A stretch of DNA of 64,000 bases from Planctomycetota bacterium (GCA_036338595.1 JAYZBV010000072.1:11686-75685); one strand, 5' to 3'; shown: positions 3,097 through 21,727, numbered from the stretch's first letter. The notes: a model not told the origin generated them from the letters alone. Program-made: numbers and translations.

Positions 3097-3186
3097 TGGC
3101 GGTGGGGGTGGGATTCGAACCCACGAGGGCTGTTACACCCTGCCGGTTTTCAAAACCGGTGCATTAGACCACTCTGCCACCCCACC
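3097..3186 (-). tRNA. tRNA-Ser (anticodon UGA)
   Basis: Reverse complement GGTGGGGTGGCAGAGTGGTCTAATGCACCGGTTTTGAAAACCGGCAGGGTGTAACAGCCCTCGTGGGTTCGAATCCCACCCCCACCGCCA: cloverleaf, long variable arm, TTCGAAT loop, encoded CCA. Confidence 0.97.
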
Positions 3187-4345: not shown

Positions 4346-5014
4346 GGGCCATCCATCCAGGAGAATTGAGCTTTGCTGGGGGCCATCATACCCGGTCTGC
4401 AGTGGCTCCCAAAACGCTCCTCGCAGCGGGATCGGGGCCCAATCGATGGTTATCGGAACCACAGAGGCTTTGCACTTTACACTTTATAAAGTATGTGTCA
4501 GGCTTCTGCCGGCCCCATGCCCGGGCTCTGTTTGCATGCGATCGCGAGTGCCTCATCGAGTGGCACTCGTTGCTCGATTGTGGATGAGACGGGCGTGAGG
4601 GGATGATCGAGATGGGGGATTCCAGCCAATCCGGGTCATTCCGGAGCATCTGGCATGAACCCTGCACTGTCGATGTGATCGGGCCACTTCACCGGACTGT
4701 CCGGTGTCGCTGGATCAGAGGGGAGAGCAGATGACACCTTCGACCCACGACCAGCGACCCTGCTCAAGTTTAATTTCGAGTCGAATCGGAATCTCGGGGA
4801 CTGCAAATCTGTTCGCTGCGTTGGCACCGCAGCAGGAGTCGAGTTCGTGCAATCCAGTCCCGTCGCATGAAGAACAATTGGTGGGAAATTGGCGGTGCGC
4901 TGCAACTGCCGGTGGCAGTTGCTCATCCCAGGGGTGGAGTCGTTCACAACCAGCCTGTGGGCAAATCCAAGAGGTTGTGGCCCGGCAACCGGGCCAGGTC
5001 GGAAAGAGGGAGTC

Positions 5015-6952
5015 ATGGTGAATCAGGGTACGAGCCAGGGAATCGATGGTCCGCAACAGACCGGTGCTTCCATCGATCTGATCAAATTCTGGGATGAACT
5101 GGGATTTGGTGGGCGCGTCGGGGTGGGGGCGGCTCTCTTTTTCGTGGTCGCATTCATCTTCACTTCATCGATGAAGAACGATTGGATCGACATCCCTGTC
5201 GGCGATGTCGAACGCGACTTTGAACTCACCGAGATCCTCAAGGGCAAGCAGATCGATTTTCGCTTCAATGACGCGGGTGGCCTTCAGGTGCCGAGTATCC
5301 GCGCATCAGAGGTATTTTCACTGCTTCACTCGAATACAGCGGCGGCTGATCAAGCGGATCCATTTGACTGGGTAGGTCAGTCTGGATCGCTGATCGACAC
5401 TTCCAGGCAGCGAGAGCAGCGCTGGGAACGGTCGCAGATCGAGCAACTCGAGGAGGACCTTGCCCGCCTCGAGGGGGTCGACTCGGTGAGCGTGACACCC
5501 AATCGATCGATCGGAGCATCGGTGATTGCTTCGAGCCGCAAGATTACCGGTGTCAGCGTCCAGGTAGATCTCGATGCACAGCTGCGGCCCGCTGGACTCA
5601 GCCAGTCGATGGCGATGTCGATTGCAATGCATGTTTCCGGGGCATACGGGGTTTCGACAGAGAAAGTCATCATCACGGATACCACCGGTCACTACTACGA
5701 TCTCGACAATTCACAGGTGACAGCAGGGGATGTCGTGGAGAAGAAAAAAATCGTCGAACAGTATGTGGTTCGATACCTCTCGGCGATTTTTGATCCTGAG
5801 ATGTTTCGTGTGGTCGTCGATGTGAGTCTGGCCAACCCGGTATTCGAGACGGTCGAGAAGTCAGGTTACATCCCGGGCAATAACCCGGTGGTGCCGGGTA
5901 TCTACGATCTCCAGGAGCAGGTGGCTTCTTACTCACCAATTTCGGCACAGTTTGCGGACTCAGTGGTGACCAGAGCCACAGCTCAGCAGATTCCAGGCCG
6001 TACAGAAGCGGATCCCGCGATCGCAGGTGTTGAAGAGGTTGCGGTCACGGTGATGCTGGATCGTCAAGGCGCCATCGCCAGAGCCAGCGCCAACGGAGGC
6101 TACAGCCGCGGCACTGAAGCAGCCAGCGGGCAACGGAGCGTCGGGCAACTGCTGCGTGAGTTTACCGCCACGATCGTCGATGGCCTCACGTCTCACCTCA
6201 GGGTTCATGTCGGTAGCGATTCAGTGATCCAGGCCAGGGTGCTTCCCGTCAACTTCAAGGGTGTGCTCTCGACTGCTGAGCCGGTCAAGGTTCAGAGTCT
6301 GGCCAACGAAGAATTCGCAGGGTACCCCTTCTCCTTCTACTTCCTGCTAGGAGGGGGATTGCTGGCAGTATTCTGGATATTCCGCCATGGCCCCAGAGAC
6401 TCGACTGTCGAGCCAGCGATAGCAGGGTTCGGTGCGGCGAGATTCGCCCAGGATCGGGTCCGAGAGAGTGTCAATACGATCTTCGAGGAGTGTGAAAGCT
6501 CCATCACCGAAAAAGCGATCGAGCAGATCCGTAGCCTCGATGTTCCCGAGTCAGTCGAGGTTCTTCGGCATGTCATCTCGCACGATGAGGGTGAACTACC
6601 GGGGTGCTCGGTGCTGGCACTACTGGTACTCGATCAATGCCCAGCCCGAGCCGAGATCTTCAATGCCATGAATCCGGAAGAGCTGTCGACACTGTCGGGG
6701 ATGATCTGCGGAGTCGAAGCCATCCATCAAGAAATGATCGCAGATGCACTGGCAGTACTGGACCTCTTCCAGGGTGTACTGTCCGGCTCCAGTCCGACAA
6801 CAGAAGTTCCCTCAGCCATCGATGTGATTCCGACTCAATTCGAAATCCAGCGATCCGTGATCGACGACATCAGATCCAATGATTCGAAACTGGCAGATCT
6901 GATCGAGGGAAATAGCAGCGGCTCCAGTTCAAGGGAGGTTCAATCGCCATGA
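5015..6952 (+). CDS. fliF: Divergent FliF/SctJ-like MS-ring protein with a fused C-terminal partial FliG-like segment
   Basis: Two TM helices (GVGAALFFVVAFIF; FSFYFLLGGGLLAVFWIF); ring-building-motif-like stretches EQLEEDLARLEGVDSVSV, SIAMHVSGAYGVSTEKVIITDTTG, YLSAIFDPEMFRVVVDVSL; first gene before fliH; RBS GAGGGAG before ATG 5015. Confidence 0.75.
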   Translation: MVNQGTSQGIDGPQQTGASIDLIKFWDELGFGGRVGVGAALFFVVAFIFTSSMKNDWIDIPVGDVERDFELTEILKGKQIDFRFNDAGGLQVPSIRASEVFSLLHSNTAAADQADPFDWVGQSGSLIDTSRQREQRWERSQIEQLEEDLARLEGVDSVSVTPNRSIGASVIASSRKITGVSVQVDLDAQLRPAGLSQSMAMSIAMHVSGAYGVSTEKVIITDTTGHYYDLDNSQVTAGDVVEKKKIVEQYVVRYLSAIFDPEMFRVVVDVSLANPVFETVEKSGYIPGNNPVVPGIYDLQEQVASYSPISAQFADSVVTRATAQQIPGRTEADPAIAGVEEVAVTVMLDRQGAIARASANGGYSRGTEAASGQRSVGQLLREFTATIVDGLTSHLRVHVGSDSVIQARVLPVNFKGVLSTAEPVKVQSLANEEFAGYPFSFYFLLGGGLLAVFWIFRHGPRDSTVEPAIAGFGAARFAQDRVRESVNTIFEECESSITEKAIEQIRSLDVPESVEVLRHVISHDEGELPGCSVLALLVLDQCPARAEIFNAMNPEELSTLSGMICGVEAIHQEMIADALAVLDLFQGVLSGSSPTTEVPSAIDVIPTQFEIQRSVIDDIRSNDSKLADLIEGNSSGSSSREVQSP

Positions 6953-7743
6953 ACGACGAAGTATTTTCGCCGACGGATGAGGGCCCAACCGAGATCTTGC
7001 AATCTGAAGTGGAGGCACGTCAGCGCCTGGAAGCACTACAAGTTGCCTACCAGCAACTGATGCAGAAACTGCTCGTCGATGGCCAGAAGTCCATCGCTGC
7101 CATCGAGTTGGCCAGGGAGTCTTCACTGGTAGCGCTCGAGAAGCACAAGAACGAGGCCAGGTCTTCAGGACTTGAACAAGGCCTGGAGGATGGTCGCAAG
7201 CAGGGCTTCGAAGCGGGCCATGCCGAGGGAATCCAGCTGGGACTCGAGGAAGGCCGCCGTGAATTTACACGGAGCGTCGAACAGAGGGCCTGTGAACTGG
7301 TTTCCCAGAACTGTGAAACATTGCCACAAACACTGGCGTCCGCCATCGAGGAGTTCTCCCGATGCTGGAAGGACACGATAGAAGAAACACGGCGTGACAC
7401 CGTGAAGCTTGCCCGTGGAATCGCTCAGAGGGTCCTCCGTCGCGAGATCGAGGACTTGCCATCGGTTGTAGTGGAAAACATCGAGCTTGCCGTGCAGCGG
7501 ATCGGTGATCGATGTCAGATCGTCATCGAGGTCAATCCCGCAGACCTCACAGCTGTAGTCCAGTTTCTTCCGCTTCTTGGACAGAAGTTTGAAGGTGCCG
7601 AGGGCGCAGAGGTGGTCGGGGTAGAGTCGATCTCACGCGGCGGTTGCCGAGTTCGCAGTCGCTCAGCGAGCGTGGATCTGACGATGGAAATGCAGTTGGA
7701 TCTGATCGAATCGGCACTGATCAAGGATTCCCAGGAGAGTTGA
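6949..7743 (+). CDS. fliH: FliH/SctL export ATPase stator/regulator
   Basis: GxxxG repeats (GLEQGLEDGRKQGFEAGHAEGIQLGLEEG), IEVNPADL, ISRGGCRV; ATGA overlap with fliF. Confidence 0.9.
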   Translation: MNDEVFSPTDEGPTEILQSEVEARQRLEALQVAYQQLMQKLLVDGQKSIAAIELARESSLVALEKHKNEARSSGLEQGLEDGRKQGFEAGHAEGIQLGLEEGRREFTRSVEQRACELVSQNCETLPQTLASAIEEFSRCWKDTIEETRRDTVKLARGIAQRVLRREIEDLPSVVVENIELAVQRIGDRCQIVIEVNPADLTAVVQFLPLLGQKFEGAEGAEVVGVESISRGGCRVRSRSASVDLTMEMQLDLIESALIKDSQES

Positions 7744-9065
7744 TGAATTTCATCGATGCGCTCGAGTCACTGAATACGGGACAGATGGTGAGGGTGCGCG
7801 GCACCGTTGCTCGCGTTACAGGAGTGATCGTTGAGGCCCAGGGCCTGTCACTACCTGTGGGAGCTGAGTGCACCATCCGGACTCGAGAAGGTGATCTGGT
7901 GGTGGCAGAGGTGATCGGGTTCTCCGGTGACAGGTGCCACTTGCTTCCCGAGTCGGGCATCTCAGGAATCGCTCCTCAAGATGTGGTGATTCACGATGGA
8001 GAAAAGCCCAGCGTCGAGGTCTCTCACCAGCTGCTCGGTCGCGTCATCGATGCAAGGGGGATCCCCATCGACGGAAAGGGACCCGTCCCCTGTGGCGAGA
8101 AGATGCCCATCCATGCGAAGCCAGTTCCAGCGCTTGAGCGTCAAAGAATTGACCGGGCAGTCCACACGGGTGTGCGCGCCTTTGATTCGATCCTGACTGT
8201 GGGAGTCGGTCAGCGCCTGGGGATCTTCTCGGGAAGTGGTGTCGGCAAATCTACGCTGCTTGGAATGATAGCAAGGAACACCGAACTCCCGATCAGGGTG
8301 ATTGCTCTGGTCGGAGAACGAGGTCGAGAGGTCCGGGAGTTCATCGATAGAGACCTCGGTCCGGAAGGCCTTGCACGAAGTGTTGTCGTGGTAGCGACAG
8401 GAGATGAAGCCGCCGTGATGAGACTGAGGGCAGCCAAGGTTGCCACCTCCATCGCAGAGTGGTTCAGGGATCAGGGCGAAGATGTTCTGTTGCTGGTCGA
8501 CTCCATCACCAGGGTCGCCCTCGCTCAGCGCGAGGTTGGCCTGTGCGCCGGGGAGCCTCCCACAACTCGCGGATACACACCCAGTGTCTTCGGGATGCTC
8601 CCACGGCTCCTCGAGCGAACTGGACCCGGCAAGGTCGGAAGCATCACTGCATTCTATTCCGTTCTTGTCGAAGGGGATGACCTGCACGATCCGATAGGGG
8701 ATGCAGTAAGAGGGATTCTAGATGGGCAGATCTGGTTGAGTAGAGATCTCGCAAATCGGGGCTGGTTCCCGCCTGTAGACCCATGTGCCAGCACCAGCAG
8801 GACGATGAACTCGGTGGTCGATCCTGACCATCTCACCGCTGCTCGCTCACTGGTTGAACTGGTGGCGACTTACCGTGAGATCGAGGACATGGTGCGTATC
8901 GGTGCGTATGTCCGCGGCCAGGATCAAAGATCGGACGCTGCACTCGATGCGATGCAATCGATCGAGGAACTGTTGCGTCAATTGCCTGCAGAGAAGAGTG
9001 AGTTCGAGCTCACCAGGAAGCGCCTGATCGATATCACCAGTAACTCCAGCTGGGAGGTTGCCTGA
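7743..9065 (+). CDS. fliI: FliI/SctN type III export ATPase
   Basis: GQRLGIFSGSGVGKSTLLGMIAR (Walker A), VGERGREVREF, LLLVDSITR (Walker B), GEPPTTRGY, ILDGQIWLSRDLA. Start ATG at 7743. Confidence 0.97.
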   Translation: MNFIDALESLNTGQMVRVRGTVARVTGVIVEAQGLSLPVGAECTIRTREGDLVVAEVIGFSGDRCHLLPESGISGIAPQDVVIHDGEKPSVEVSHQLLGRVIDARGIPIDGKGPVPCGEKMPIHAKPVPALERQRIDRAVHTGVRAFDSILTVGVGQRLGIFSGSGVGKSTLLGMIARNTELPIRVIALVGERGREVREFIDRDLGPEGLARSVVVVATGDEAAVMRLRAAKVATSIAEWFRDQGEDVLLLVDSITRVALAQREVGLCAGEPPTTRGYTPSVFGMLPRLLERTGPGKVGSITAFYSVLVEGDDLHDPIGDAVRGILDGQIWLSRDLANRGWFPPVDPCASTSRTMNSVVDPDHLTAARSLVELVATYREIEDMVRIGAYVRGQDQRSDAALDAMQSIEELLRQLPAEKSEFELTRKRLIDITSNSSWEVA

Positions 9066-9523
9066 TGTCGACCGATGATTTCCGACTCGATGCGTTGCTC
9101 AGATTGCGAAAGAAGGAAGCTCATCTGCAACAGGAAAAACTGACCGCCTGCATCCAGAAACTGGAAGAGCAGCGCCAGGAAATGGGCAGAACTAACGAAA
9201 AGTACCACTCGGTCGTCACAGCCCTCCGCCAGGAGGATCAGGCCGGTGCAACACTCTCGGAACTGATGGTTCATCGCCGGTACCTCGAACGGATGAGAGA
9301 TCTTGCGAAGGAACAGGGCGAACTCGCCGTTTCACTGGCAGCGGATCTGGAACAGGTCCGAGGTCATGTCGTCGAGGCCATCCGTCAATGTCGCGTGGTC
9401 GAAAAATTGAAAGAACGGTTTGAAGAGCGGGAATCAGAGCGTGTCAAACGCAGCGAGCAGCGACTCGTCGATGCAGAGACCAGCGCTCGGATTGCGGCGG
9501 GGATCCAGGCGGAGTCAGCCTGA
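9065..9523 (+). CDS. fliJ: FliJ/SctO export stalk protein
   Basis: 152-aa coiled coil beginning FRLDALLRLRK and containing VEKLKER...EQRLVD; directly follows fliI. Confidence 0.85.
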   Translation: MSTDDFRLDALLRLRKKEAHLQQEKLTACIQKLEEQRQEMGRTNEKYHSVVTALRQEDQAGATLSELMVHRRYLERMRDLAKEQGELAVSLAADLEQVRGHVVEAIRQCRVVEKLKERFEERESERVKRSEQRLVDAETSARIAAGIQAESA

Positions 9524-9579
9524 CAGGGCGTCGAATTCTGCTCAGTAGCGATGGGAATACAGTGGAAAGGAAACCAGCG

Positions 9580-10245
9580 ATGGCAAGTCTCGGGAGTCGA
9601 AGAAGAAATGAACTCCGCTGGGTGAGAACCGTGGTTCTGTTGGCAGTGCTGGTGATCGTTGTCACCACATTCATCGATGCGCAACAGTTTCCGGTCCCGG
9701 AAACAGCAACCAATGCTGAGGTGTCAGGAACTCCGGTGCCAGACGAGCGTTTTGCCAATGGAGGGGTCATTTCTGCCGCCAGTTCGGGCAGTACCTCGGG
9801 ACCATGGAAAACACTTCAGGCACTCGGGGCGATTTTCGTCATCACAGGAGTGGGAATCGGTGGGTACTTCTTGATTCGAAAATTTGCGCCAGGAGCAATC
9901 CCGGGGACAGATGCCCGCATGAAGGTTCTGATGCGGATGCCCATCGGGAATCGCCAGAGCATCATCATTCTTCGGGTAGGTGACAGGGTGCTTGTTGTGG
10001 GCGCTTCCTCCGGCGGCATGAAGTGCCTCAGCGAGATCACCGATCAACATGAAGTTGAAAACCTCAGCTACGGTGTGGAGTTCTCACGGGAACGGAGAAA
10101 AGTAAACGAATTGGTAGATAGCGAGGAGCTCGGCGACTTTGTCGAGGACGATGAGAAAACCAGCGATGTGCAACATGAGATCGAGTGGCTTCGTGACCGC
10201 CTGGATGGTTACGGAGAAAAGGTCGAAGGAAAGGTGCGTACGTGA
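9580..10245 (+). CDS. fliO: FliO/FliZ family export-gate chaperone (start could be 9562)
   Basis: TM helix then MKVLMRMPIGNRQSIIILRVGDRVLVVGASSGGMKCLSEI, a FliO-type beta domain; precedes fliP. Confidence 0.8.
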   Translation: MASLGSRRRNELRWVRTVVLLAVLVIVVTTFIDAQQFPVPETATNAEVSGTPVPDERFANGGVISAASSGSTSGPWKTLQALGAIFVITGVGIGGYFLIRKFAPGAIPGTDARMKVLMRMPIGNRQSIIILRVGDRVLVVGASSGGMKCLSEITDQHEVENLSYGVEFSRERRKVNELVDSEELGDFVEDDEKTSDVQHEIEWLRDRLDGYGEKVEGKVRT

Positions 10246-11087
10246 TCAACGTTCGGCGCTCACTGATTTTGGGAGTCATCGTAGCGTTTGCGATATTGTT
10301 CATCGCAGCGCCTGTAGCGATGGCTAGCGCTGGTGATGGCGAAGCCGTAGGAATCATCGATCGAGTCCTGAGTGGATCTCCGGGGGATGTCGATGTTTCC
10401 ATCAAACTGATCTTGCTGACAACAGTACTCGCGATCGCGCCGGCACTATTGATGCTGACGACCTGTTTTACTCGAATCATCGTGGTACTGGGCTTTGTCA
10501 GGCGAGCCATCGGCACCCAGGATTCGCCACCCAACCAGGTCCTCGTGGGACTCTCCTTCCTGCTCACACTGGCAGTGATGGGGCCTGTCTGGAGCGATAT
10601 TTACACCAATGCGATCCAGCCCTATGCAGACCAGACTCCGATGCCGACCACCGGAGAGGTGCCCACCGGGGAAGAAGCGTACGCATACGCAGATTCAAAG
10701 ATGCGTGAGTTCATGTACCACGCCATCGACGAGGGTGACCTGCTATTGATGGCCAGGGTAGGTGCAGCGAAGACGGTCGAGGAACAATACGAAGAAGACG
10801 GGATCATCAGCGCTGAATTTGTCGATTCATTACCAACCACGGTGATCATCCCGGCGTTTGTCCTCAGCGAGCTGAGGAGAGCCTTCGAGATGGGATTCAT
10901 GATCTACATCCCGTTCGTCGTCATCGATCTCGTGGTCTCCGCATTACTGGTCTCGATGGGGATGCTGATGCTGCCTCCAGTGGTAGTTTCGCTCCCCTTC
11001 AAGGTGCTGGTCTTCGTGCTGGTGGACGGTTGGGGACTGGTAGTCGAGCAACTGTTGTTCTCCTCGATGGTGACGGTGACCGGATGA
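10242..11087 (+). CDS. fliP: FliP/SctR export gate protein
   Basis: TTCFTRIIVVLGFVRRAIG, PPNQVLVGL, IPAFVLSELRRAFEMGF, MGMLMLPP, LPFKVLVFVLVDGW; signal-peptide-like N-terminus, a flagellar-type trait. Confidence 0.97.
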   Translation: MINVRRSLILGVIVAFAILFIAAPVAMASAGDGEAVGIIDRVLSGSPGDVDVSIKLILLTTVLAIAPALLMLTTCFTRIIVVLGFVRRAIGTQDSPPNQVLVGLSFLLTLAVMGPVWSDIYTNAIQPYADQTPMPTTGEVPTGEEAYAYADSKMREFMYHAIDEGDLLLMARVGAAKTVEEQYEEDGIISAEFVDSLPTTVIIPAFVLSELRRAFEMGFMIYIPFVVIDLVVSALLVSMGMLMLPPVVVSLPFKVLVFVLVDGWGLVVEQLLFSSMVTVTG

Positions 11088-11362
11088 CACGATTAGATGT
11101 AGCACTGGATTTCCTCCAGCAGGCGTTGCTCGTTGCACTGCAACTGTCGGTGCCAATATTGTTAGTGATGATGATTGTCGGAATTGCCGTGAGTCTCATC
11201 CAGGCGATGACACATCTACAGGATCAAACTCTCACCTTTGTTCCGAAGATCCTTGCCGTCGCCGTCGCTCTGCTTCTGCTGATGCCACTGCTTCTGGGAT
11301 GGGCGACCGAGTTCACCAGGGAAATGATCCAGGCCTCCGCCGTCGCGCTGGGTGGGGGGTGA
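11084..11362 (+). CDS. fliQ: FliQ/SctS export gate protein
   Basis: VGIAVSLIQAMTHLQDQTLTFVPKI; ATGA overlap with fliP. Confidence 0.95.
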   Translation: MTRLDVALDFLQQALLVALQLSVPILLVMMIVGIAVSLIQAMTHLQDQTLTFVPKILAVAVALLLLMPLLLGWATEFTREMIQASAVALGGG

Positions 11363-11368
11363 TCCAGG

Positions 11369-12202
11369 ATGGCTGAGCTGTTCGAATACTCCACATCCTC
11401 ATGGGCCGGTTGGTTTCTCGTCTTCACGAGGATCTCGGGAGCGATGATGGTGCTTCCCATCTTTTCTTCTCGCACGATTCCGGCGCGGATCAAGGCTGCG
11501 ATTGCGGCGCTGATCGCGCTCTGCGTGGCACCACTGGCCATCGCAGATCCATCAGGAACCGGCACGAGGCAGATGGGAGAGTTGATGGCGACGCCGCTGG
11601 CTGGCGCTGTCTCCATCTGTGGTGAACTGGCTCTTGGCTGGGTCCTGGGCGCCACTGCAGCGGTGTTGATGTGGGGAGCACACCTCGGGGGGCAGTTGAT
11701 CGGACAGGATTCCGGGCTGGCATTTGGTCAGGTGGTCGATCCCACGACCGGGCAAGCGACGGCTCCGACGGCGAACTTGATGATGATTTTCGCAGGACTT
11801 GCTTTTCTGGCACTGGAAGGTCATCGGCTGGTGATCCTGGCGCTGTGCGGCTCCTTCGATGCCGTTCCTCCCGGATCCATCGGCAATATCCTGATACACG
11901 GGGTTCCCCTCACCACGGCTGCTCAGATCACGAGCGAACTCGGCTCGCAAACCTGGATGCTCGGACTGCAAATCGCTTTTCCGGCCAGTATTGCGCTGCT
12001 GGTGACGACCGTGGGTCTCGGTTTGATGGCCCGGATGATTCCCGAGATGAATGTCTTTGCGGTCGGCTTTGCAGTTCGTACAGGGGTTGGAATGCTAGCC
12101 CTCTTCATGACACTTCCCTTCATCGCGGATCTATTTGGTGCTGTCGTCGCGACGGGCCTCCAGGGATCGCAGATGATCCTCAGTGGACTCGGGGGGAACT
12201 GA
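11369..12202 (+). CDS. fliR: FliR/SctT export gate protein
   Basis: FTRISGAMMVLPIFS, GELALG, GQLIGQDSGL, DP, GHRLVI, GLMARMIPEMNVF. Confidence 0.95.
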   Translation: MAELFEYSTSSWAGWFLVFTRISGAMMVLPIFSSRTIPARIKAAIAALIALCVAPLAIADPSGTGTRQMGELMATPLAGAVSICGELALGWVLGATAAVLMWGAHLGGQLIGQDSGLAFGQVVDPTTGQATAPTANLMMIFAGLAFLALEGHRLVILALCGSFDAVPPGSIGNILIHGVPLTTAAQITSELGSQTWMLGLQIAFPASIALLVTTVGLGLMARMIPEMNVFAVGFAVRTGVGMLALFMTLPFIADLFGAVVATGLQGSQMILSGLGGN

Positions 12203-12215
12203 AGTGATCTTCCAG

Positions 12216-13043
12216 ATGACTGACCACGGTGAGAAAACCGAGGCCCCAACGCGCAAGCGATTGGAATCTGCACGACTGGAGGGTCGGGTAGCACTGAGCA
12301 GTGATCTGGTCGGATCCTTCGTGCTGACGTCTGGTTTCGGATTCTTGCTTTTCTTCTCCGGGAGCATCTTTGCAGCGATCTTCTCGGGGACCCGAGCATC
12401 TCTGGGATCCATCGGGAGCATCCGACTCAACGAGCAGGCAAGCCTACAGTTGCTGACAGATGCGGTGGAACATTCCCTCGTCATCCTGTTGCCGATACTG
12501 CTGACGATATTTGCCGTGGCGGCGGTGGTGACATGGTTGCAGGTAGGCCTACGCATCCGGACAGGGGAGGTGTTGCCGGATCTGACCAGAGTCGATCCGA
12601 TTCGAGCACTGATGAACATCCTCGGCCTGGGTGGACTGCGGCGAGTGGGAATGGGAGTGCTGAAGTTGATTGCCGTCGGAATCGTGCTTGTTCCGGGCAT
12701 CTGGGGCTTGATGGGCGACTCCGAAGTGATCCGCAGTGCAGCGGTGGTGGCAGGCGGTGGATCACTGGCTGCGATCGGCACGAAAGTGGTCGAGTTGATC
12801 CTGCAGGCATGTGGCGCCCTGCTGATCGTTTCTGCAGTGGATTGGGCCTTCAGGCGTTGGGCCTACCAGAGATCCCTGATGATGAGCCGGAGAGAAGTGG
12901 AGGACGAGAAGAGAGAACTGACAGGCGATCCTCATCTGAGGCGAAGACGCAAGCAGCGTCACCGGCAAATCCTGGAGAAACGGGGTCCGGAGTTCACCGA
13001 CGAGACGTCACTCCACAGCGGATCGAGAGGCGACACCCGATGA
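12216..13043 (+). CDS. flhB: FlhB/SctU homolog with TM domain and linker only; no NPTH autocleavage or switch domain
   Basis: EKTEAPTRKRLESARLEG, four TM segments, LMMSRREVEDEKRELTGDPHLRRRRKQ, then a short tail and stop; 275 aa; ATGA overlap with flhA. Confidence 0.9.
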   Translation: MTDHGEKTEAPTRKRLESARLEGRVALSSDLVGSFVLTSGFGFLLFFSGSIFAAIFSGTRASLGSIGSIRLNEQASLQLLTDAVEHSLVILLPILLTIFAVAAVVTWLQVGLRIRTGEVLPDLTRVDPIRALMNILGLGGLRRVGMGVLKLIAVGIVLVPGIWGLMGDSEVIRSAAVVAGGGSLAAIGTKVVELILQACGALLIVSAVDWAFRRWAYQRSLMMSRREVEDEKRELTGDPHLRRRRKQRHRQILEKRGPEFTDETSLHSGSRGDTR

Positions 13044-15205
13044 ACGAGCACCAGATGCACACACTGACGCCAGTCTCCGGCTGGAAAGATACCATCCGCA
13101 GGAACCGGGATCTCGCCGTCGTGCTGGCGCTTGCGGGGATCCTCATCGCCATCCTTGTGCCCCTACCCGGTCGATTGATGGACGGGCTGCTCGGCGCGAA
13201 CATCGGCTTATCAGTGCTGATCCTGCTCACGGTGGTTTATCTCCGCAAGCCGCTGGAGTTTGCTTCCTTTCCCTCATTACTGCTGCTGGCAACGCTGTAC
13301 CGTCTCGCCCTCAACATTGCCACGACTCGATTGGTTCTCAGTCGTGCAGGAGACGAAGGGGTAACGGCTGCTGGAGATGTAGTGCACTTCTTCGGTGAGT
13401 TTGTTTCGGGTTCCAATTTGATCGTCGGTTTCATCATCTTCTCGATTCTCGTGGTGATCCAATTTGTCGTCGTGACCAAAGGTGCAACGCGTATTGCAGA
13501 GGTGGCTGCTCGATTCACGCTCGACAGGATGCCCGGCGCTCAGATGGCCATCGATGCCGATCTCAATGCAGGGAACATCTCGGGCAAGGAGGCGAGCACA
13601 GCAAGGGAGCAACTCGCCGAACAGGCTGATTTCTACGGGGCGATGGATGGAGCCAGCAAGTTTGTTCGCGGAGATGCCATCGCCGGGATCATCATCACGA
13701 TCATCAATATCGTTGGTGGATTCACCATCGGAGTCCTTCAGTACGGGATGACCTTTGCTGAAGCGGGACGGGTGTTCACGACGTTGACCATCGGAGATGG
13801 CCTGGTCACTCAGATTCCCGCACTCTTTATCAGCGTCGCTGCCGGGTTGATGGTCACCAGAGCATCGACGAGGGGCCAGATCGGGGACGCCGTCGTCGGA
13901 CAGTTGTTCGGCAACCCGAGGGCGCTGGCGATCACGGCCCTGGTTCTTGTGGCTCTCGCCTTCACCGGTTTGCCTCCTGTTGTTCTTGGTGTCCTTGCCG
14001 TATCGCTGGCGACTGTGGCCTACTTGTCGCGTAAACCGAGGCGTGCGCCGGTCAGTACAGGGGCAGCAGTGGCGATGCCCTCACTCCCCGGGGGCGTTGA
14101 GACGGCAGAAGACTCCGGACAGGGGACCACGACCAGCGCCCGCCGGATCGAGTTCTCGGGCCAGCAACCGATTCGCATCGAACTTGGCTACAGTCTTCAA
14201 AGTCTTCTCGAGCCCGAATCGTCAGGAGTGGCTCTCAGTGTCCGGGTTCAGAAACTGAGAGAAGATCTTCAGAAAGAACTTGGATTCTGGATTCCCCCTG
14301 TGCATGCCAAGGTGCAGATCCGGGGGATTCCGAGGCAAGAGTTCAGCATCCAGCTCAGAGAGATTCCCTGTTCGCGTGGTGTGCTGAGAGCGAGGCAGGC
14401 ACTCATCGTTTCAGATCACCGTCGCTCGATCGATGGAATATCAGGAGACGCTGCTGAACTGGAGATTCTTGAGGCTCCTGCAAGGTGGATATCGCTCGAT
14501 GAGGGCGAGATGCGAAAGTCACTCGGGTACCGAGTACTCACTGCGCAAGATGCGCTGATTCTTCACCTTCGCAGCGTGATCATGGAGCATATTCAGGAGC
14601 TTCTGACGCAGAAGGAAACTCGCAGGATCCTTGACCGAGTCGGCGAGGAGTGCCGAACTCTGGTGGACGAAGTGGTCCCTGAACTGCTGCGTGTCGGAGA
14701 GATACAGAAAATTCTCCAGTCGTTACTCGCAGAGGGAGTTTCGATCCGGGATATGGAGAAGATCCTCGAAACGCTGGGCGAGGAGGTCCAGCAGCGACCT
14801 GAATCGCGCAAGGATCTCACTGCATTGGCGGAGACGGTGCGAGCATCTCTCGGACGCAGCATCTGTGCTCAATATCTGGATCCGCAGGGCAAGTTGCATG
14901 TCGTCACCCTGGATCCACAGATAGAGAGCGTTCTGCTGGAAGATCTGGCACCTGCCGAGCACGCCGAGAATGCCCCGTGCCTGTCACCACAGCAGCATGA
15001 GTCCGTGATGGAGGCGCTCGTCATGGCGGTGGCCCAGCTGGTTGAGAGTGACCATCCTGCTGTCATCCTCACCTCGCGCCAGCTGCGAATTCCGATCAAG
15101 AAGCTGCTGGAGAAGGAAGTGCCCACGGTGGCGGTCCTCTCCTACAATGAAGTCGGCCACGGGACCACCGTGGAATCTGGGGGGATGGCGAGAATCGTTG
15201 CCTGA
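13040..15205 (+). CDS. flhA: FlhA/SctV major export apparatus protein
   Basis: FPSLLLLATLYRLALNIATTR, GATRIAEVAARFTLD, FYGAMDGASKFVRGDAIAG, TIGDGLVTQIP, LLAEGVSIRD, VLSYNEV; 721 aa from ATG 13040. Confidence 0.97.
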   Translation: MNEHQMHTLTPVSGWKDTIRRNRDLAVVLALAGILIAILVPLPGRLMDGLLGANIGLSVLILLTVVYLRKPLEFASFPSLLLLATLYRLALNIATTRLVLSRAGDEGVTAAGDVVHFFGEFVSGSNLIVGFIIFSILVVIQFVVVTKGATRIAEVAARFTLDRMPGAQMAIDADLNAGNISGKEASTAREQLAEQADFYGAMDGASKFVRGDAIAGIIITIINIVGGFTIGVLQYGMTFAEAGRVFTTLTIGDGLVTQIPALFISVAAGLMVTRASTRGQIGDAVVGQLFGNPRALAITALVLVALAFTGLPPVVLGVLAVSLATVAYLSRKPRRAPVSTGAAVAMPSLPGGVETAEDSGQGTTTSARRIEFSGQQPIRIELGYSLQSLLEPESSGVALSVRVQKLREDLQKELGFWIPPVHAKVQIRGIPRQEFSIQLREIPCSRGVLRARQALIVSDHRRSIDGISGDAAELEILEAPARWISLDEGEMRKSLGYRVLTAQDALILHLRSVIMEHIQELLTQKETRRILDRVGEECRTLVDEVVPELLRVGEIQKILQSLLAEGVSIRDMEKILETLGEEVQQRPESRKDLTALAETVRASLGRSICAQYLDPQGKLHVVTLDPQIESVLLEDLAPAEHAENAPCLSPQQHESVMEALVMAVAQLVESDHPAVILTSRQLRIPIKKLLEKEVPTVAVLSYNEVGHGTTVESGGMARIVA

Positions 15206-15248
15206 CTTACCGAGTCAGTTGGCGAGTTCCTCGCGGGGAAAGGGGAGC

Positions 15249-16688
15249 GTGCTCTTGAATGAGCCAACAGTACCCGGTGACGCGGGGCACACCCGCGTCG
15301 TAGCACCGGATTACGCATCTGCAGTTCGCATTCTTCAGGATCGATTCGGAAGTGATTGGACGGTGGTCCATTCACGGAAGGTTCGAAGGCCTGGATTTCT
15401 GGGATTGTTCGGCGTTTCTGATGTGGTCGTGATCGTCCGCACCGAGGAATCGATGCTGTTCCAGCCTCAGGCAAATCCCGTCGTCTCCTCCAGTGGGAAA
15501 CTGGCGCCACTGGCAATAGATGCGGGTCAGTTTGATGTCCCGGTATCGATCCCTGACCTCGTGCCGGTCATGGCAGGCAATTTCGAGCCGAGCAATGAAG
15601 CGGGGGATCTTGTGTATCGCCTCGAAGATGCTCGCAGTCGGATCGCCGATGAGTTGAAGGCATATTCCAAATCGATGTCAGGACAATCGTCCACTACCGC
15701 ATGGGAATCAGCGCAGCAGCGAACTGATGTGGAATCACTCCCGATCGAAGCTGAGCAACCTGGGGTTGCGACGCAGCTGAACACCGAATGCGATGATGTC
15801 CTGGATGGGAATGCGGATCCGATCGAGCCAGGGGGTGCAGAAAATCTGATCGACATGCACATCTCACAGGGTGAGCACCAGGATGTGGAGCCAGCGTTTC
15901 TCGGAGCAATATTGACTCATTGTGATGTGGCTGGATTTCCTCCTGCGGCAGTGAAGATGATAGTGGAGCAGGTCTGCGCCGATCCGATTGACGAAAGCCA
16001 CGGCCCCGGGGATTACCAGCAGATCGCCAGGGAGAGGATAATTCGCTGCATCCAGGCGAGAATCCCTGACACGGTGCAGATCGCAGCGGGTTCGGTCGGA
16101 CTGCCGAGAGTGGTGGCTCTGGTCGGTCCCACAGGTGTCGGAAAGACCACGACGCTGGCGAAACTGGCGGCACACTTTCATCTGGTCGAGAAGAGGAGAG
16201 TCGGTCTCGTGACTCTCGATTGCTACAGAATCGGAGCCATCGAGCAGCTACGCCGATTCGCCGAGATACTGGGCCTGCCTCTCAAAACAGTTTCCGAGGC
16301 AGCAGGCGCAGCCGAGGCGATCGAGGGCTTCTCCGATTGCGATGTGATTCTGGTGGATACAGCTGGCCGTAGTCAACGCGACCAGGAGCGCCTCACCGAG
16401 GTGCGGGATTCTCTCGCAAACATCGGGGACGTCGAAGTACATCTCTGCCTGTCACTCGCTGCATCGCCGGAGGCGATCGTCGCTGCTGCGGAATCGTTCC
16501 GGATGGTCAAGTACGACCGTGTCATCTTCACCAAGAAGGATGAGTCGTATCGAAAGGGGTTCCTCTGGGATCTGTTCGGCGTGACTCCGGTTCCAGTCTC
16601 CTATGTCACCTGTGGGCAAGAGGTACCCGAGGATATTCAGCCGGCAACCAGGGAACTGATCTGTGAAATGATGATCCAGGGAAGATGA
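15249..16688 (+). CDS. flhF: FlhF SRP-family GTPase
   Basis: VVHSRKVRRPGFLGLFG N-domain; GPTGVGKTTTLAKLA, DCYRIGAIEQL, DTAGRS, TKKDE, GQEVPEDI. Start approximate (GTG 15249 after AGGGGAG). Confidence 0.92.
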   Translation: MLLNEPTVPGDAGHTRVVAPDYASAVRILQDRFGSDWTVVHSRKVRRPGFLGLFGVSDVVVIVRTEESMLFQPQANPVVSSSGKLAPLAIDAGQFDVPVSIPDLVPVMAGNFEPSNEAGDLVYRLEDARSRIADELKAYSKSMSGQSSTTAWESAQQRTDVESLPIEAEQPGVATQLNTECDDVLDGNADPIEPGGAENLIDMHISQGEHQDVEPAFLGAILTHCDVAGFPPAAVKMIVEQVCADPIDESHGPGDYQQIARERIIRCIQARIPDTVQIAAGSVGLPRVVALVGPTGVGKTTTLAKLAAHFHLVEKRRVGLVTLDCYRIGAIEQLRRFAEILGLPLKTVSEAAGAAEAIEGFSDCDVILVDTAGRSQRDQERLTEVRDSLANIGDVEVHLCLSLAASPEAIVAAAESFRMVKYDRVIFTKKDESYRKGFLWDLFGVTPVPVSYVTCGQEVPEDIQPATRELICEMMIQGR

Positions 16689-17569
16689 GAGACCAGGCCT
16701 GGCGACTTCGAAAGATGGTAGAAGAAAAGGTGTTCCCTGTCAGGGGGAGGGCCAGGGTGCTGGCAGTGACCAGTGGCAAGGGTGGTGTCGGAAAGACCAA
16801 CATCTCGGTCGGGCTTGCCATCGCCGCGGCAGCCTCTGGAATCCGCACCGTGCTGCTCGATGGCGATCTTGGTCTGGCCAATATCGATGTACTTCTCGAT
16901 CTCCATCCCAGAAAGCACCTGGGTCATCTGATCGATGGAGAGGCAACTCTCGAAGATGTGCTGATCGACTCACCCGGAGGAATCCAGGTACTACCTGGTG
17001 CCAGTGGTCTGACCAGGGTTGCAGATCTTGGAAATGTTCAGAAACAGCGACTGCTCGAAGCGGTGGCGAGACTGGTGGAAGAATTCGACCTGGTCCTGAT
17101 CGATACGGGTGCTGGGATTTCTCGCGCAGTGCTCGATCTTTGCATATGTGCGGGAGAGGTGTTGGTGGTGACGACACCGGAACCAACAGCTGTCGTCGAT
17201 GCCTATGCGATGCTGAAGGTGTTTTCGGTCGAGGAGTCTACCCCAAAGCAATGGCTGGTGGTCAATCAGGTCCTTTCTCGGGGTGAAGCTCAACAGGTTT
17301 CCAGTCGCATGATCAGTCTTGCTCAGCAATTTCTGGGTGTTGAGGTGAACGGTTGTGGTTCGGTATTGCTCGATCCGCGTGTCAGGGCATCGGTTCGCAG
17401 GAGACAGCATTTCTCTCTCGCCTATCCTTCCTGTCCTGCTGCCAAGGGGGTCAAGGAAGTGGCTCATATTCTCGGTCTGGCGGGGCGAGCAGGGAGCCGT
17501 GGTTTCATGAATCGTCTAAAAGAGATGTGGATCGGGGATCTGAGCAGGCCCCGGGAGCGTTCTCTTTGA
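16685..17569 (+). CDS. flhG: FlhG/FleN MinD-like ATPase
   Basis: N-terminal DQAxxLR motif (MRDQAWRLR), SGKGGVGKT, DGDLGLANID, DTGAG, TPEPT. Confidence 0.93.
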   Translation: MRDQAWRLRKMVEEKVFPVRGRARVLAVTSGKGGVGKTNISVGLAIAAAASGIRTVLLDGDLGLANIDVLLDLHPRKHLGHLIDGEATLEDVLIDSPGGIQVLPGASGLTRVADLGNVQKQRLLEAVARLVEEFDLVLIDTGAGISRAVLDLCICAGEVLVVTTPEPTAVVDAYAMLKVFSVEESTPKQWLVVNQVLSRGEAQQVSSRMISLAQQFLGVEVNGCGSVLLDPRVRASVRRRQHFSLAYPSCPAAKGVKEVAHILGLAGRAGSRGFMNRLKEMWIGDLSRPRERSL

Positions 17570-17742
17570 GGGCCAGTTGCTCGAGTTGTGCGGATTCTCG
17601 AGAGCGTGGCACGGAAGATGCCGTTGACTGCGGGGACCTGGCACGCTGGCGGATGATCGTCGGATTCAGACGTGATCCCCTGGAGACGACACGAAGGGTC
17701 CTGTTAGGCTAACGGCAAGAAACTCAGGAAGAGGAGACTCAA

Positions 17743-18588
17743 TTGGCGCAGATCGAGTCGGAAGAGACACGGAAAACTATTCCTGCAAACGATTCCCTGG
17801 TCGGAAAGACCCGGATGCAGGATGACCCGGAACTTGAGCAGGTATGGATCGAGTTCAAGGAATCCCAGAGTAATGAACTCAAGAACAATCTCCTGGAGAG
17901 GTATCTGCACATCGTTCGATACACTGCAGACCGTCTTCACATGAAGTTACCTCAACAGGTTGATGTAGAAGATCTGTACAGTGCGGGTTTGTTCGGCCTG
18001 ATGGATGCGATCGACAACTACGATCTGACTCGCGGAGTTAAATTCGAGTCCTACTGCTCGACCCGGGTTCGCGGCTCGATTCTGGACTCACTTCGAAAGA
18101 TGGACTGGGTTCCTCGCCTGGTTCGCTCAACGGCCAACCGGATCGATGCAGCCTGGAAACAGTTCCAGAACGAGACGGGAAGAGAACCCACCGACTTCGA
18201 GATGGCTGAGCAACTGGGAGTGACCGACGAGGAATTCGAATCGATGCAGCGAGAAGCATCTGCGGCTTCCATCGTCTCGATCTCGGAACAGATTTCTGAC
18301 GAAGGGGAGTCCAGGTCACTGAGAAAAATCGATATCCTCAATGACAAGAAGGCCAAGTCTCCCGACGAAGATTCTCTCAGAACTGCGATCAAAGAGTTCA
18401 TCTATGATCAACTGGATTATCGTGAGCAGGCGATCATCGAGGGCTACTACTTCCAGGGGAAGACGATGAAGTGCATCGGATTGAAACTCCATCTGTCAGA
18501 ATCAAGAGTTTGTCAGCTTCACTCGCGGATCATGAGTCGATTGCGCCAGACCTGCGACAAGCACCGACTCGACTTCATGCAGGATTGA
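17743..18588 (+). CDS. fliA: Sigma-28 family RNA polymerase sigma factor (FliA/WhiG)
   Basis: DLYSAGLFGLMDAID, GVKFESYCSTRVRGSILDSLRKMDWVPR, GREPTD, MKCIG-LHLSESRVCQLH. Confidence 0.95.
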   Translation: MAQIESEETRKTIPANDSLVGKTRMQDDPELEQVWIEFKESQSNELKNNLLERYLHIVRYTADRLHMKLPQQVDVEDLYSAGLFGLMDAIDNYDLTRGVKFESYCSTRVRGSILDSLRKMDWVPRLVRSTANRIDAAWKQFQNETGREPTDFEMAEQLGVTDEEFESMQREASAASIVSISEQISDEGESRSLRKIDILNDKKAKSPDEDSLRTAIKEFIYDQLDYREQAIIEGYYFQGKTMKCIGLKLHLSESRVCQLHSRIMSRLRQTCDKHRLDFMQD

Positions 18589-18629: not shown

Positions 18630-20399
18630 ATGAGCAACTCCGACCAGAGACCCACGGAACAACCGACGCCATCGGGCACCAAGCAACCCCTGCCGAGATG
18701 GGTGTTTCTTGTCGCAGTGTTGCTCGCTTCCCTCGCAGCATCCCAGTTCCTGATCCGTAGCTGGGCGCTGGTCGGATTCCCCCAGGAGATCCGCTACGGC
18801 GAGGCGGTCGTGCTCGATCAGGCACGCAGGGTGATGGCTGAGCCAGGCCTCTACCCCGAGATGGGCAAGGAGCCGTGGCTTCTCGACCAGTACGCACCCT
18901 TCTATCCATTTCTGGCTCACCTCACCGGAAAATTCGCCTCGTCACCCTTCGGTGGGGGGCGAGCCATCTCGTTGCTGGCGACTCTCCTCTCCGCCGTGAT
19001 GCTGACGCTGATCGTGCGCAGATCATCGGGCCTGGCAGCTGGACTCCTCTGTGGGGCAGCGATGCTGACGATGATGGAGTTTCTTCGCTTCGGGTTCTTG
19101 ATGAGGGTCGATCCCCTCGCATTGTCGCTGGCGATGGTCGGAGTCTGGTGCAACCTGCAGCAGAAAACACCGGTGAGAATCCTCGGCGCGGCGGCTTTCT
19201 TTATTGCCGTCTATACCCGCCAGACGACGGTGGCACTACTTCTGGTGAGTTACATTCAGATGTGGCGGCAGGAGGGCCGAGGGGCGCTCCGTTGGCCCTT
19301 CTCATTGCTTGCGGTGGGGCTGCTCTTCTATGGTTTTCTTGTGGCGGCCACCGACGGTGCATTTCATCAGCACGCCGTGATGTCGAATCTGTTTCGCTTC
19401 GAGTGGGCAGAGGGACTGAAGAAAGCATTTTCTGGTTTCATGCCCTGGAGAGCACCACTCTTCATCGGCATCTTCCTGGCATTGATCCCCGGCCCTGAAT
19501 CGGGAGGAACCCGATCTGGAAGGCCCCGCACCATCGGATTCCTGGCGATGGGACTGGCGCTGGGGTGCTGTGTCCCGGCGCTGAAGCAGTTCCTGGTGCC
19601 TGGCAGCGATCCGACCGTGCTCCACTGGATCCTGTACGGACATGTTGTGCTGCTTGCCTATGCCGCCTGGATCACCATTCGCAGCGACGTCGGCAAGCTG
19701 GATGGCAGCAAGATCGATGGAATCCGGATCCTGATGGCTCTCGCATCGATGACCTTGATCGGGCGCATCGGTTCCGACCTGAACTACCTGTTCGAGGCGG
19801 GGATCCTGATGCTGCTGGTATGTGGAGAAGCGATGGGAAGGGTGGTACCACGGCGGGCTCTGATCATCTCATCGTTGCTGGCGATCCAGGTGCTGGGCGG
19901 TTTCTATCTCAGTGGTCTGCAGCTGGAGTTTCAGCCGGAGCGATTGCTGGAGATGAAGGAGCGCCATCGCATCACCGATCATCTCGAAGCGTATCCCGAC
20001 CCGGTCCTCAGCGAGGAGCCATGGGCACTGGCACAAACTGGAAGACCTCTGGTGCTGGGGCCCTACACCGCAAGACAGATGTACGACATAGGCTTGTGGG
20101 ACGGCAAGGACCTGATCGCAGCTCTCGATGCCCAGAGATATTCCGCCATCGTTCGTGCCAAGCAGAGAAGCTGGGCAGGTGTGGAGCGTGACGAAAGTGG
20201 ACATGTCATCATCGCTGCGGACGGACTGCCGGTGCCGTACTTTGGCCCCTGGACCTTCAACTCGGTCAGGTCGTTACCACAGGAGATCCAGCAAGCGATC
20301 GAGAGGAACTATCAGCAAGCACCGGGGACCACCATGATCGAGAGGGTGACGAAGTACTTTCTCGAAGGAAGAGAGATCTGGGTACCGATCCCTCGCTGA
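18630..20399 (+). CDS. Polytopic membrane glycosyltransferase, GT-C fold (ArnT/PMT-like)
   Basis: About 11-13 TM helices; first loop EIRYGEA...YAPFYP; GRAISLLA; MRVDPLA; TRQT; soluble C-terminal domain. Confidence 0.7.
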   Translation: MSNSDQRPTEQPTPSGTKQPLPRWVFLVAVLLASLAASQFLIRSWALVGFPQEIRYGEAVVLDQARRVMAEPGLYPEMGKEPWLLDQYAPFYPFLAHLTGKFASSPFGGGRAISLLATLLSAVMLTLIVRRSSGLAAGLLCGAAMLTMMEFLRFGFLMRVDPLALSLAMVGVWCNLQQKTPVRILGAAAFFIAVYTRQTTVALLLVSYIQMWRQEGRGALRWPFSLLAVGLLFYGFLVAATDGAFHQHAVMSNLFRFEWAEGLKKAFSGFMPWRAPLFIGIFLALIPGPESGGTRSGRPRTIGFLAMGLALGCCVPALKQFLVPGSDPTVLHWILYGHVVLLAYAAWITIRSDVGKLDGSKIDGIRILMALASMTLIGRIGSDLNYLFEAGILMLLVCGEAMGRVVPRRALIISSLLAIQVLGGFYLSGLQLEFQPERLLEMKERHRITDHLEAYPDPVLSEEPWALAQTGRPLVLGPYTARQMYDIGLWDGKDLIAALDAQRYSAIVRAKQRSWAGVERDESGHVIIAADGLPVPYFGPWTFNSVRSLPQEIQQAIERNYQQAPGTTMIERVTKYFLEGREIWVPIPR

Positions 20400-20455: not shown

Positions 20456-20553
20456 TGGCGGGGGTGCATCGGAATCGAACCGACCTACGACGTTGTTCGC
20501 GCCGCACCATGGGTTTGAAGCCCAGGAGGCCCACCAGGTGCCCATTCACCCCC
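20456..20553 (-). tRNA. selC: tRNA-Sec (anticodon UCA)
   Basis: Reverse complement GGGGGTGAATGGGCACCTGGTGGGCCTCCTGGGCTTCAAACCCATGG...GGTCGGTTCGATTCCGATGCACCCCCGCCA: CTTCAAA anticodon loop, extended acceptor stem, long variable arm; lies downstream of selD and selA. Confidence 0.95.
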
Positions 20554-21671: not shown

Positions 21672-21727
21672 TGGTGCTGCTCCTTCCCGGTTGAGGGAGG
21701 ATCACACCACATGAGGATGCCGTCAAG

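Follow-up and report, generated by a model that had tools for sequence, protein, structure and literature searches.

A conserved flagellar export cluster without rod, hook and filament genes in Planctomycetota, possibly retained for export of the anti-sigma factor FlgM

The window, that is, the whole stretch of 64,000 nucleotides that was analysed (GCA_036338595.1, JAYZBV010000072.1:11686-75685), belongs to a metagenome-assembled genome (MAG) of Planctomycetota, labelled G000 here (window C72:11686-75685). At 5015-18588 (+) it carried 13 genes, from fliF to fliA, of a flagellar type III secretion system (T3SS) reduced to its export machinery. Related genomes without flagellin and rod/hook genes carried clusters of the same kind, in most of which FlhB ended ahead of its autocleavage site, and most of these genomes retained the anti-sigma factor FlgM. 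We lean towards the explanation that the flagellar export gate is kept locked in its late state to remove FlgM and so switch on sigma28, as a signalling device and not as a builder.

Gene content and origin of the cluster

The genome spanned 2.9 Mb in 114 contigs (88.3% complete), and the GC content was flat across the window. Pfam and NCBIfam models confirmed the 13 open, co-oriented frames named in a first-pass annotation of the window. Its description of them as mostly translationally coupled also held, as 7 of the 12 junctions overlapped (stop/start coupling) and the other five were gaps of 6–173 nucleotides. The cluster began with FliF, the MS-ring protein, likely fused to an N-terminal piece of FliG (5015-6952, +; Pfam YscJ_FliF E = 9e-12; ratio of nonsynonymous to synonymous substitution rates, dN/dS, 0.21). 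It was followed by FliH (6949-7743, +; Pfam FliH E = 1e-16; dN/dS 0.23), the export ATPase FliI with intact motifs (7743-9065, +; TIGR01026 over the cut-off; 547 bits for the flagellar clade versus 510 for SctN; dN/dS 0.06), FliJ (9065-9523, +; TIGR02473 E = 3e-12, slightly below the cut-off) and FliO (9562-10245, +; Pfam FliO E = 5e-11). The gate proteins were FliP (10242-11087, +; TIGR01103 220 bits, over the cut-off, versus 170 for SctR; dN/dS 0.04), FliQ (11084-11362, +; 76 bits versus 60 for SctS; dN/dS 0.09), FliR (11369-12202, +; 149 bits versus 99 for SctT; dN/dS 0.09), a C-terminally truncated FlhB (12216-13043, +; Pfam positions 1-243 of 335; dN/dS 0.14) and FlhA, full length including its cytoplasmic domain and with the conserved charged loop and MDGA motif (13040-15205, +; Pfam 1-654 of 657; 697 bits versus 573 for SctV). 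The last three genes encoded the signal recognition particle-type GTPase FlhF (15249-16688, +; TIGR03499 171 bits at a cut-off of 174; start codon inferred from the ribosome-binding site), the MinD-type ATPase FlhG (16685-17569, +; Pfam ParA/CbiA and synteny with flagellated kin; dN/dS 0.08) and the sigma factor FliA, i.e. sigma28 (17743-18588, +; TIGR02479 221 bits, over the cut-off of 189.6; dN/dS 0.10). Scored with patterns that we take to be the accepted ones, the Walker-type motifs of FliI, the G1-G4 motifs of FlhF and the P-loop of FlhG were intact, as had been claimed for the ATPase and GTPase genes.

For FlhA, FliP, FliQ, FliR and FliI, flagellar models outscored injectisome models, while FlhB was a tie at 145 bits. 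These scores, together with a tree in which the cluster nested with flagellar kin, support the flagellar rather than injectisome origin proposed at first reading. FlhA shared 53–68% whole-protein identity with four named Planctomycetota MAG records, including Planctomycetes bacterium UBA1146, and approximately 38–45% with other planctomycetes; the lineage presumably belongs to the GTDB class UBA8108. An FlhA 90% identical to that of the window occurs in a record titled 'Bacillota bacterium', which is probably misclassified.

In G009, a flagellated member of the same family, the operon ran flgB, flgC, fliE, fliF, fliG, fliH, fliI, fliJ, a gene without assignment, fliK, flgD, flgE, motA, motB, a gene in the FliL position, fliN, fliO to flhG, a gene for a small membrane protein and fliA. 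Judged by this gene order, the window cluster is a G009-type operon with blocks excised. Forty-four proteins of G009 served as tblastn queries against G000. At E ≤ 0.01, none of the queries for rod, hook, rings, filament, cap, FliK, FliE, FliG, FliN or the stator proteins MotA and MotB, the last two searched for in this one genome, matched G000. Beyond the cluster, flagellar queries matched only FlgN (E = 6e-7) and generic paralogues (sigma factors, ATPases, two-component proteins). FliG_C, the torque domain, and FliMN_C were not found in G000 or in the related groups g1, g5 and g7. The earlier claim that axial, stator and C-ring genes are missing from the cluster could be extended to the genome, and the full rod, hook, filament, stator and C-ring set of a split ordinary regulon was not found elsewhere in it. 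FliM has to be struck from the list: the matching operon of G009 likewise yielded no gene of the FliM family, so the absence of FliM from the cluster is not a loss at this site. CheW was also not found in G009, whose motility apparently proceeds without chemotaxis, and a loss of chemotaxis is therefore uninformative. Since G000 is only 88% complete, with not even rpoB found in it, the weight of these absences rests on its relatives.

No secretin was present in the cluster, as first noted, but five secretins over the cut-off lay elsewhere in G000, the same number as in G009. Needle, SctD and translocon proteins were not found in the cluster by Pfam, although no search was aimed at these families. 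Four ATPase motifs of the pilus or type II secretion system (T2SS) type were present in G000. By the tests run, the cluster is neither a flagellum nor an injectisome. The export gate (FliP/Q/R, FlhA, FlhB) and the ATPase complex (FliH/I/J) of a flagellum were present, with FlhB lacking its C-terminal third. It did contain the genes by which orphan CORE clusters are defined (FliO, FliP, FliQ, FliR, FlhB and FlhA, without axial genes), and the parallel drawn earlier to such remnants was apt.

Distribution and repeated loss of the flagellum

G000 and 60 relatives from the Planctomycetota were searched. Among these 61 genomes, FlhB was found in 61, FlhA in 58, FliI in 49, FliG_C in 26, FliMN_C in 25, the rod/hook C-terminal domain in 16 and flagellin in 15. 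Genomes with FlhB and without flagellin or rod/hook matches, hereafter called export-only, numbered 45 (G000, g1 with 8, g5 with 6, g7 with 8, G011, g14 with 3, f6 with 14 and f7 with 4). FlhA was present in 44 of them and the rod/hook domain Flg_bbr_C in none of the 45, which include the one-contig genome G045 and the four-contig genome G039. The counts are descriptive because kin are not independent.

In an RpoB tree (50 genomes, 1065 columns, rooted on G060), the export-only genomes fell into three groups, each adjoining flagellated kin. The export-only clade of f1 (support 1.0) was sister to four flagellated f1 genomes, g14 was sister to the flagellated G040, and f6 and f7, joined at a support of 0.34, stood beside the flagellated f5. 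G000 is missing from this tree because its rpoB was not found, and the two RpoB copies of G032, which fell outside their family, were ignored. A second tree, built on six cluster proteins of 37 genomes, had the same shape, with f6 and f7 joined at a support of 1.0 and with long export-only branches. As judged from the two trees, the cluster is inherited vertically and the flagellum has been lost repeatedly. Among 151 genomes sampled across the phylum, FlhB (90) and FlgI (82) mostly co-occurred. Two planctomycetes outside this class, G061 and G164 (L379, L380), gave no flagellin matches but had FlhA and FlgM, together with a long FlhB in which the cleavage motif was missing; motA and motB were kept in G164.

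The missing axial, stator and C-ring genes, the missing FliG torque domain and the missing FlhB domain had been read as three independent losses. They are instead steps of one series, seen at different stages in relatives such as G011 and g16 and repeated in separate clades. G011 retained FliE, FliN, a degenerate separate FliG and a long FlhB; g14 retained FliE and a FliG without its middle; f7 kept FliG and FliN alongside a short FlhB. The g16 cluster (L190, L192, L193, L197) had FliF, the N-terminal part of FliG, the gate, FlhF/G and FliA, and lacked FliH/I/J; FliI was found in none of the ten g16 genomes versus 27 of 27 in f1. With a well-conserved FlgM, g16 is a natural case of a gate without its ATPase. 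The FliF-FliG fusion was present in g1, g5 and g7, and FliJ was not detected in eight g7 loci. In the four-contig G039, FliI had degenerate Walker motifs (L188:6340-7827) and FliJ was not detected. The full CORE plus FliF, FlhF and FlhG was common to all three clades.

Truncation of FlhB, fusion of FliG to FliF, and selection

As the first-pass annotation had stated, FlhB was truncated and the torque domain of FliG lost. FlhB of the window stopped 39 residues after the conserved GDP motif, ahead of the autocleavage site. The flhB stop overlaps the flhA start, which leaves no room for a remnant of the lost domain between the two genes, and no stand-alone FlhB-C gene was found in G000. In 38 of the 45 export-only genomes FlhB ended at Pfam position 233-250; one more was cut by a contig end and six were long. 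The long forms lacked the cleavage motif in all five that were aligned, whereas the motif was present in all three aligned FlhB proteins of flagellated genomes. Ten of the 16 flagellated genomes had a separate gene for FlhB-C, which was found in none of the 45 export-only genomes. Because long and short forms are mixed within g5, the cut arose several times. In the phylum sample, a short N-terminal FlhB as the sole copy was confined to this class, fragments aside. Genomes of the flagellated family f10 carried a lone second, short FlhB (Pfam 2-219; L381:8532 in G172 and G143:C14:20962-21633); around the G172 copy there was no further export gene.

FliF had two membrane spans and a periplasmic part of approximately 400 residues, and its profile matched flagellated FliF with a probability of 99.5 over 222 columns. 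Its cytoplasmic tail measured 185–191 residues in 20 of 20 g1, g5 and g7 proteins versus 73–98 in 12 unfused FliF proteins, i.e. it was about 100 residues longer; one further unfused FliF/FliG pair could not be scored. The best PDB match of a profile built from the 20 tails was FliG residues 3-68 (E = 7e-4), which places a FliG-N-like segment at 6596-6790 (+). FliG and C-ring chains also took ranks 1–7 in a Foldseek search with the tail (best E = 0.026, none at E ≤ 0.001), and hhalign against FliG gave a weak match (probability 19). The tail is likely a fused N-terminal piece of FliG.

By Nei-Gojobori counts between G000 and G004, dN/dS was 0.04–0.25 for all 13 cluster genes, similar to 0.19 and 0.22 for neighbouring genes. 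Twelve further export-only pairs gave similar values, save fliG of g14 (0.96) and fliQ, for which a value of 0.70 was inflated by overlapping stop-to-stop frames and was corrected to 0.09. No stops were found inside the FlhA, FlhB or FliI matches. Judged by these ratios, the cluster is under purifying selection, and the earlier view that random decay does not account for it was borne out, with neither dN/dS near 1 nor pseudogenes across the cluster.

FlgM, FlgN and predicted promoters

A FlgM-like protein of 107 residues was encoded outside the window (C55:14413-14736, -; L210:5414-5737); its immediate downstream neighbour is a tRNA-binding gene, the one that also follows flgM in G009. It was recognised only through a custom profile combined with synteny. 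With a three-sequence profile, FlgM was found in 52 of the 61 genomes and in 37 of the 45 export-only ones; for 18 weaker matches that were inspected, the downstream gene was mostly the same. A 40-sequence profile recovered solved FlgM chains (E = 1e-6 and 0.008). The match in G085 lies within a frame of 1754 residues. Among five distant genomes, the two with FlhA kept FlgM, and the three without FlhA had no credible FlgM, two of these keeping a FliA-like sigma factor.

The predicted FliA-FlgM complex scored 0.68 and the best of three controls 0.01, although the score may be driven by memorisation of a like complex that is solved. Of solved complexes, 116 of 157 reached the mark used, versus 2 of 215 mismatched pairs; runs shared at least 55% of contacts, and the predicted local distance difference test value of the partner was at least 53. 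With such a complex already solved, the model is a sign of likeness to it. A conserved N-terminal motif of FlgM lay outside the modelled interface (residues 58-107), which fits the expectation for an export signal.

The FlgN-like protein (C34:25765-26292, -; L211:3766-4293) stood alone beside a tRNA-like sequence and was preceded by a sigma28-type promoter pattern. Pfam FlgN at E ≤ 0.01 matched 36 of 61 genomes, 18 of them over the cut-off, and missed G000.

Promoters were sought with patterns that we take to represent the sigma28 and sigma54 consensus. A first sigma28-type pattern found nothing in 11 loci and was rejected as stricter than needed. A loose pattern preceded flgM at 40 of 48 loci (25/30 and 15/18), with a background of 463 in 2077 genes; the stricter pattern used for other genes had a background of 8 in 2077. 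Across G000 the sigma28-type pattern gave 86 matches versus 35–37 in mononucleotide shuffles, a weak null, and 19 regulon candidates, including a sulfatase, a tetratricopeptide repeat protein, threonyl-tRNA synthetase and a PilN-like protein. Four candidates beyond flgM and flgN were compared in six genomes each, where the stricter pattern preceded prkA/yeaG (C73:47989-50040, +; L347) in five, a membrane-anchored PilZ protein (C41:28551-29627, -; L344) in four, a receiver-like protein in four and a helix-turn-helix (HTH)-like protein in three. The PilZ protein resembles a flagellar brake and is kept without stators; one open reading frame with a GGDEF motif was found in G000. An atlas search with the HTH-like target gave only leads under 0.9. 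No candidate for a secreted structural protein was found among the conserved sigma28-type targets, so nothing points to a new structure, and the earlier suggestion that the cluster might build a non-flagellar one found no backing here.

A sigma54-type promoter-like site preceded fliF (4651-4665, +). It recurred at 14 of 20 g1, g5 and g7 loci (6/7 g1, 8/8 g7, 0/5 g5) and at 0 of 13 others, with a background of 0.017 per kb per strand. A second such site lay upstream of fliA (17607-17621, +) and recurred at 7 of 36 loci, all in g1 or g5, while five f6 loci had a sigma28-type site before fliA instead.

Neighbouring genes

Directly after fliA, a membrane protein of 589 residues was encoded (18630-20399, +; dN/dS 0.19) that had no Pfam match; its homologue at the same place in G024 weakly matched the glycosyltransferase family PMT_2. 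A gene for tRNA-Sec and selD-like and selA genes lay just downstream of the cluster (20456-20553, -; 20619-23137, -), and tRNA-Ser (3097-3186, -) and a CNNM/CBS protein (3257-4462, -) upstream. Between flhG and fliA, flagellated f1 genomes and G011 encoded a small hydrophobic protein without a Pfam family (L198:3477-3806 in G009; L171:2428-2817 in G011), which was not found in g1, g5 and g7.

Proposed function

The mechanism that we favour would start at the sigma54-type site, from which the operon may be driven. FlhF and FlhG, given their known function, would bring both the FliF-FliG(N) ring and the gate of FliPQR, FlhB and FlhA to a single place in the cell, probably a pole. A FlhB without the domain that docks early substrates and keeps the gate early would hold the gate permanently late, and for that reason neither hook nor FliK would be needed. 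The gate would then export FlgM to the periplasm, with FlgN retained as a gate activator though its clients FlgK and FlgL are gone, and the freed FliA would transcribe a small non-flagellar regulon (flgM, flgN, the PilZ protein, the receiver-like and HTH-like proteins, prkA). More speculatively, gate assembly or membrane energisation might time the sigma28 output, e.g. in the cell cycle of bacteria that we take to divide without FtsZ.

This mechanism is modelled on Salmonella. In strains without rod, hook and Fluke, an FlhB stop at 258 or a deletion of 270-383 led to FliK-independent periplasmic export of FlgM and abolished early export (Chevance et al. 2026, PMC13344023). We favour removal of FlgM as the use of the gate because the natural clusters match this anatomy: early substrates, FliK and the cleaved domain are all missing, and FlgM is the only late substrate that remains. 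Binding of FlgN to FlhA activates sodium-driven export upon failure of the ATPase (Minamino et al. 2021, PMC7955116), which could explain why FlgN persists without clients and how g16 might export. The retention of flgM and flgN elsewhere in the genome, on other contigs, together with a putative sigma28 regulon, enlarges the retained gene set first described, which was confined to the cluster, and suggests a specific substrate and purpose. More tentatively, we propose a signalling-only T3SS that evolved at least three times in one planctomycete class, in which a pole-targeted, late-locked gate would be a spatial or energy-dependent trigger of a non-motility sigma28 programme.

Several observations weigh against FlgM export as the purpose of the gate. 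The Salmonella effect of deleting the cleaved domain (CCD) required loss of Fluke and over-expression of flhDC, and a non-cleavable FlhB allele does not switch there (PMC13344023). Six export-only genomes have a long FlhB, with the cleavage motif lacking in the five that were aligned. FlgM of the G000 clade was missed by Pfam and NCBIfam (Pfam: 0 of 3 export-only f1 genomes), one of its sigma4-binding helices looks degenerate, and its dN/dS in the clade of the window was 0.26–0.54 (short pairs with low synonymous rates) versus 0.04 in g16. FlgM was not found in 8 of the 45 export-only genomes, five of them g7, where the matches are weak (E ~1e-4), and the co-loss of FlgM and FlhA was checked in five genomes only. 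Evidence for FlgN is weak in f1 (Pfam E ~1e-3, or missed). The regulon is based on a single degenerate pattern in six genomes per gene. RNA support was weak: one run held 0.06 of the words and is not counted as evidence, and its eight listed contigs (151–234 nucleotides), all inside the cluster, may stem from DNA carry-over. Loss of flgM would release sigma28 at much lower cost than the upkeep of 13 genes, so that the explanation has to suppose some gain from timing. Export, expression and localisation in cells are so far deduced from sequence.

Alternative explanations

The gate may have been repurposed to secrete non-flagellar proteins (enzymes, adhesins, effectors) to the periplasm, with FlgM and FliA merely carried along. 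This is unlikely, though it is the strongest of the rivals: the ATPase complex of f1 is intact and constrained (FliI 27/27; dN/dS 0.06), FlhA keeps its full cytoplasmic domain, an outer exit could be supplied by the five secretins and the four ATPase motifs of pilus/T2SS type, and Lysobacter enzymogenes OH11 sets a precedent (PMC7688988). However, the 37 loci compared held no candidate substrate gene in the cluster, the conserved sigma28 targets are unlike secreted structural proteins, G009 has as many secretins, g16 does without FliH/I/J, and FliI of G039 is degenerate. We rate it slightly less probable still that the gate is a membrane platform, be it a nanotube CORE or, with FlhF, FlhG and FliF, a polar landmark positioning division, budding or type IV pili. 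FlhG is linked with division-site control in Campylobacter. A full CORE with FliF, FlhF and FlhG is among what the three clades have in common; in Bacillus the CORE functions independently of FliI and FliF (PMC6456723), and OH11 components affect twitching (PMC7688988). Such a platform leaves FlgM, FlgN, the sigma28 promoters, the precise cut of FlhB and the constrained ATPase unexplained. Nanotube biology itself is reportedly disputed.

Slow decay of the flagellar regulon, in which the most conserved operon is the last to go, would fit the long export-only branches, the nested series of losses, fliG of g14 (dN/dS 0.96) and the degenerate FliI of G039; in one published table, Isosphaera pallida scores for FliP and FlhA only (PMC6456723 supplement). 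It is already largely refuted and very improbable, given the low dN/dS of all 13 genes, on a par with their neighbours and with the 12 export-only pairs, the lack of stops within FlhA, FlhB and FliI matches, retention across three genera in genomes of 2.6–3.7 Mb, and the same FlhB end reached several times. That the flagellum is an ordinary one, with its remaining genes overlooked because the MAGs are incomplete, hardly deserves belief. The 88% completeness of G000 and its missing rpoB could invite this idea, but neither flagellin nor rod/hook was found in any of the 45 export-only genomes, contiguous G045 and G039 included, and the deletions sit inside a contiguous operon. Export of FlgM through a late-locked gate remains our preferred reading.

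Comparison with known systems and significance

The closest counterpart is the late-locked flagellar T3SS mutant of Salmonella (PMC13344023), which likewise has no rod, hook or FliK, ends FlhB before the cleavage site and contains FlgM and sigma28. Aligned on the GDP motif, the FlhB ends of G012 and G022 fall close to the Salmonella 258 stop, with Salmonella numbering as we presume it to run. The planctomycete form differs in being natural, conserved and not laboratory-selected, whereas the Salmonella mutant needed over-expression (PMC13344023), and in also lacking FliE, FliM/N, most of FliG and the stators. Orphan CORE clusters, described from Myxococci, Chloracidobacterium thermophilum and Succinatimonas, share FliPQR-FlhA-FlhB without the rest of the flagellum (PMC6456723); unlike them, the present clusters keep FliF, FliH/I/J, FlhF/G, FliA, FlgM and FlgN and have a cut FlhB. 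That paper proposes nanotubes; its named examples are not planctomycetes, and at least four planctomycete rows are scored in its available tables, none of those from this class. Strain OH11 resembles our case in having no flagellum while expressing a flagellar export gate whose function has changed. OH11 retains flgE, flgC, flgG, flgH, flgI, flgD and fliN and exports FlgD, while the planctomycete cluster is without hook, rod and ring genes, and neither FlgM nor FliA occurs in the available text of the OH11 paper (PMC7688988). With the FliA-FlgM switch of flagellated bacteria (structures 1RP3, 9WSF), the system shares sigma28, an anti-sigma homologue, an apparently autoregulated flgM promoter and a PilZ protein in the regulon, but it lacks the hook-basal-body checkpoint and a flagellin target. 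Cultured Saltatorellota are described as having full flagellar sets (10.1101/817700). The literature covered, mainly open-access papers, yielded no account of this cluster or of a device that exports FlgM only, although further supplements could list partial planctomycete flagellar sets. The cluster is real, conserved and convergent, a variant of repurposed flagellar export systems, and its signalling function is testable and possibly new.

It has long been asked how the type III gate changes over from early substrates to late ones, and Chevance et al. (2026) locate the switch in the physical removal of the cleaved domain of FlhB (PMC13344023). Repeated evolutionary deletion of this domain with FlgM kept would provide dozens of natural gates under purifying selection for testing that model, and the versions without a C-ring and without an ATPase (g16) would define a minimal working gate. 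If our explanation is true, these planctomycetes would confirm the 2026 'remove FlhB-CCD' model in nature. They would also offer a concrete function for 'orphan' flagellar export clusters beyond nanotubes or toxin secretion, and a stepwise view of the transition from a flagellum to something else.

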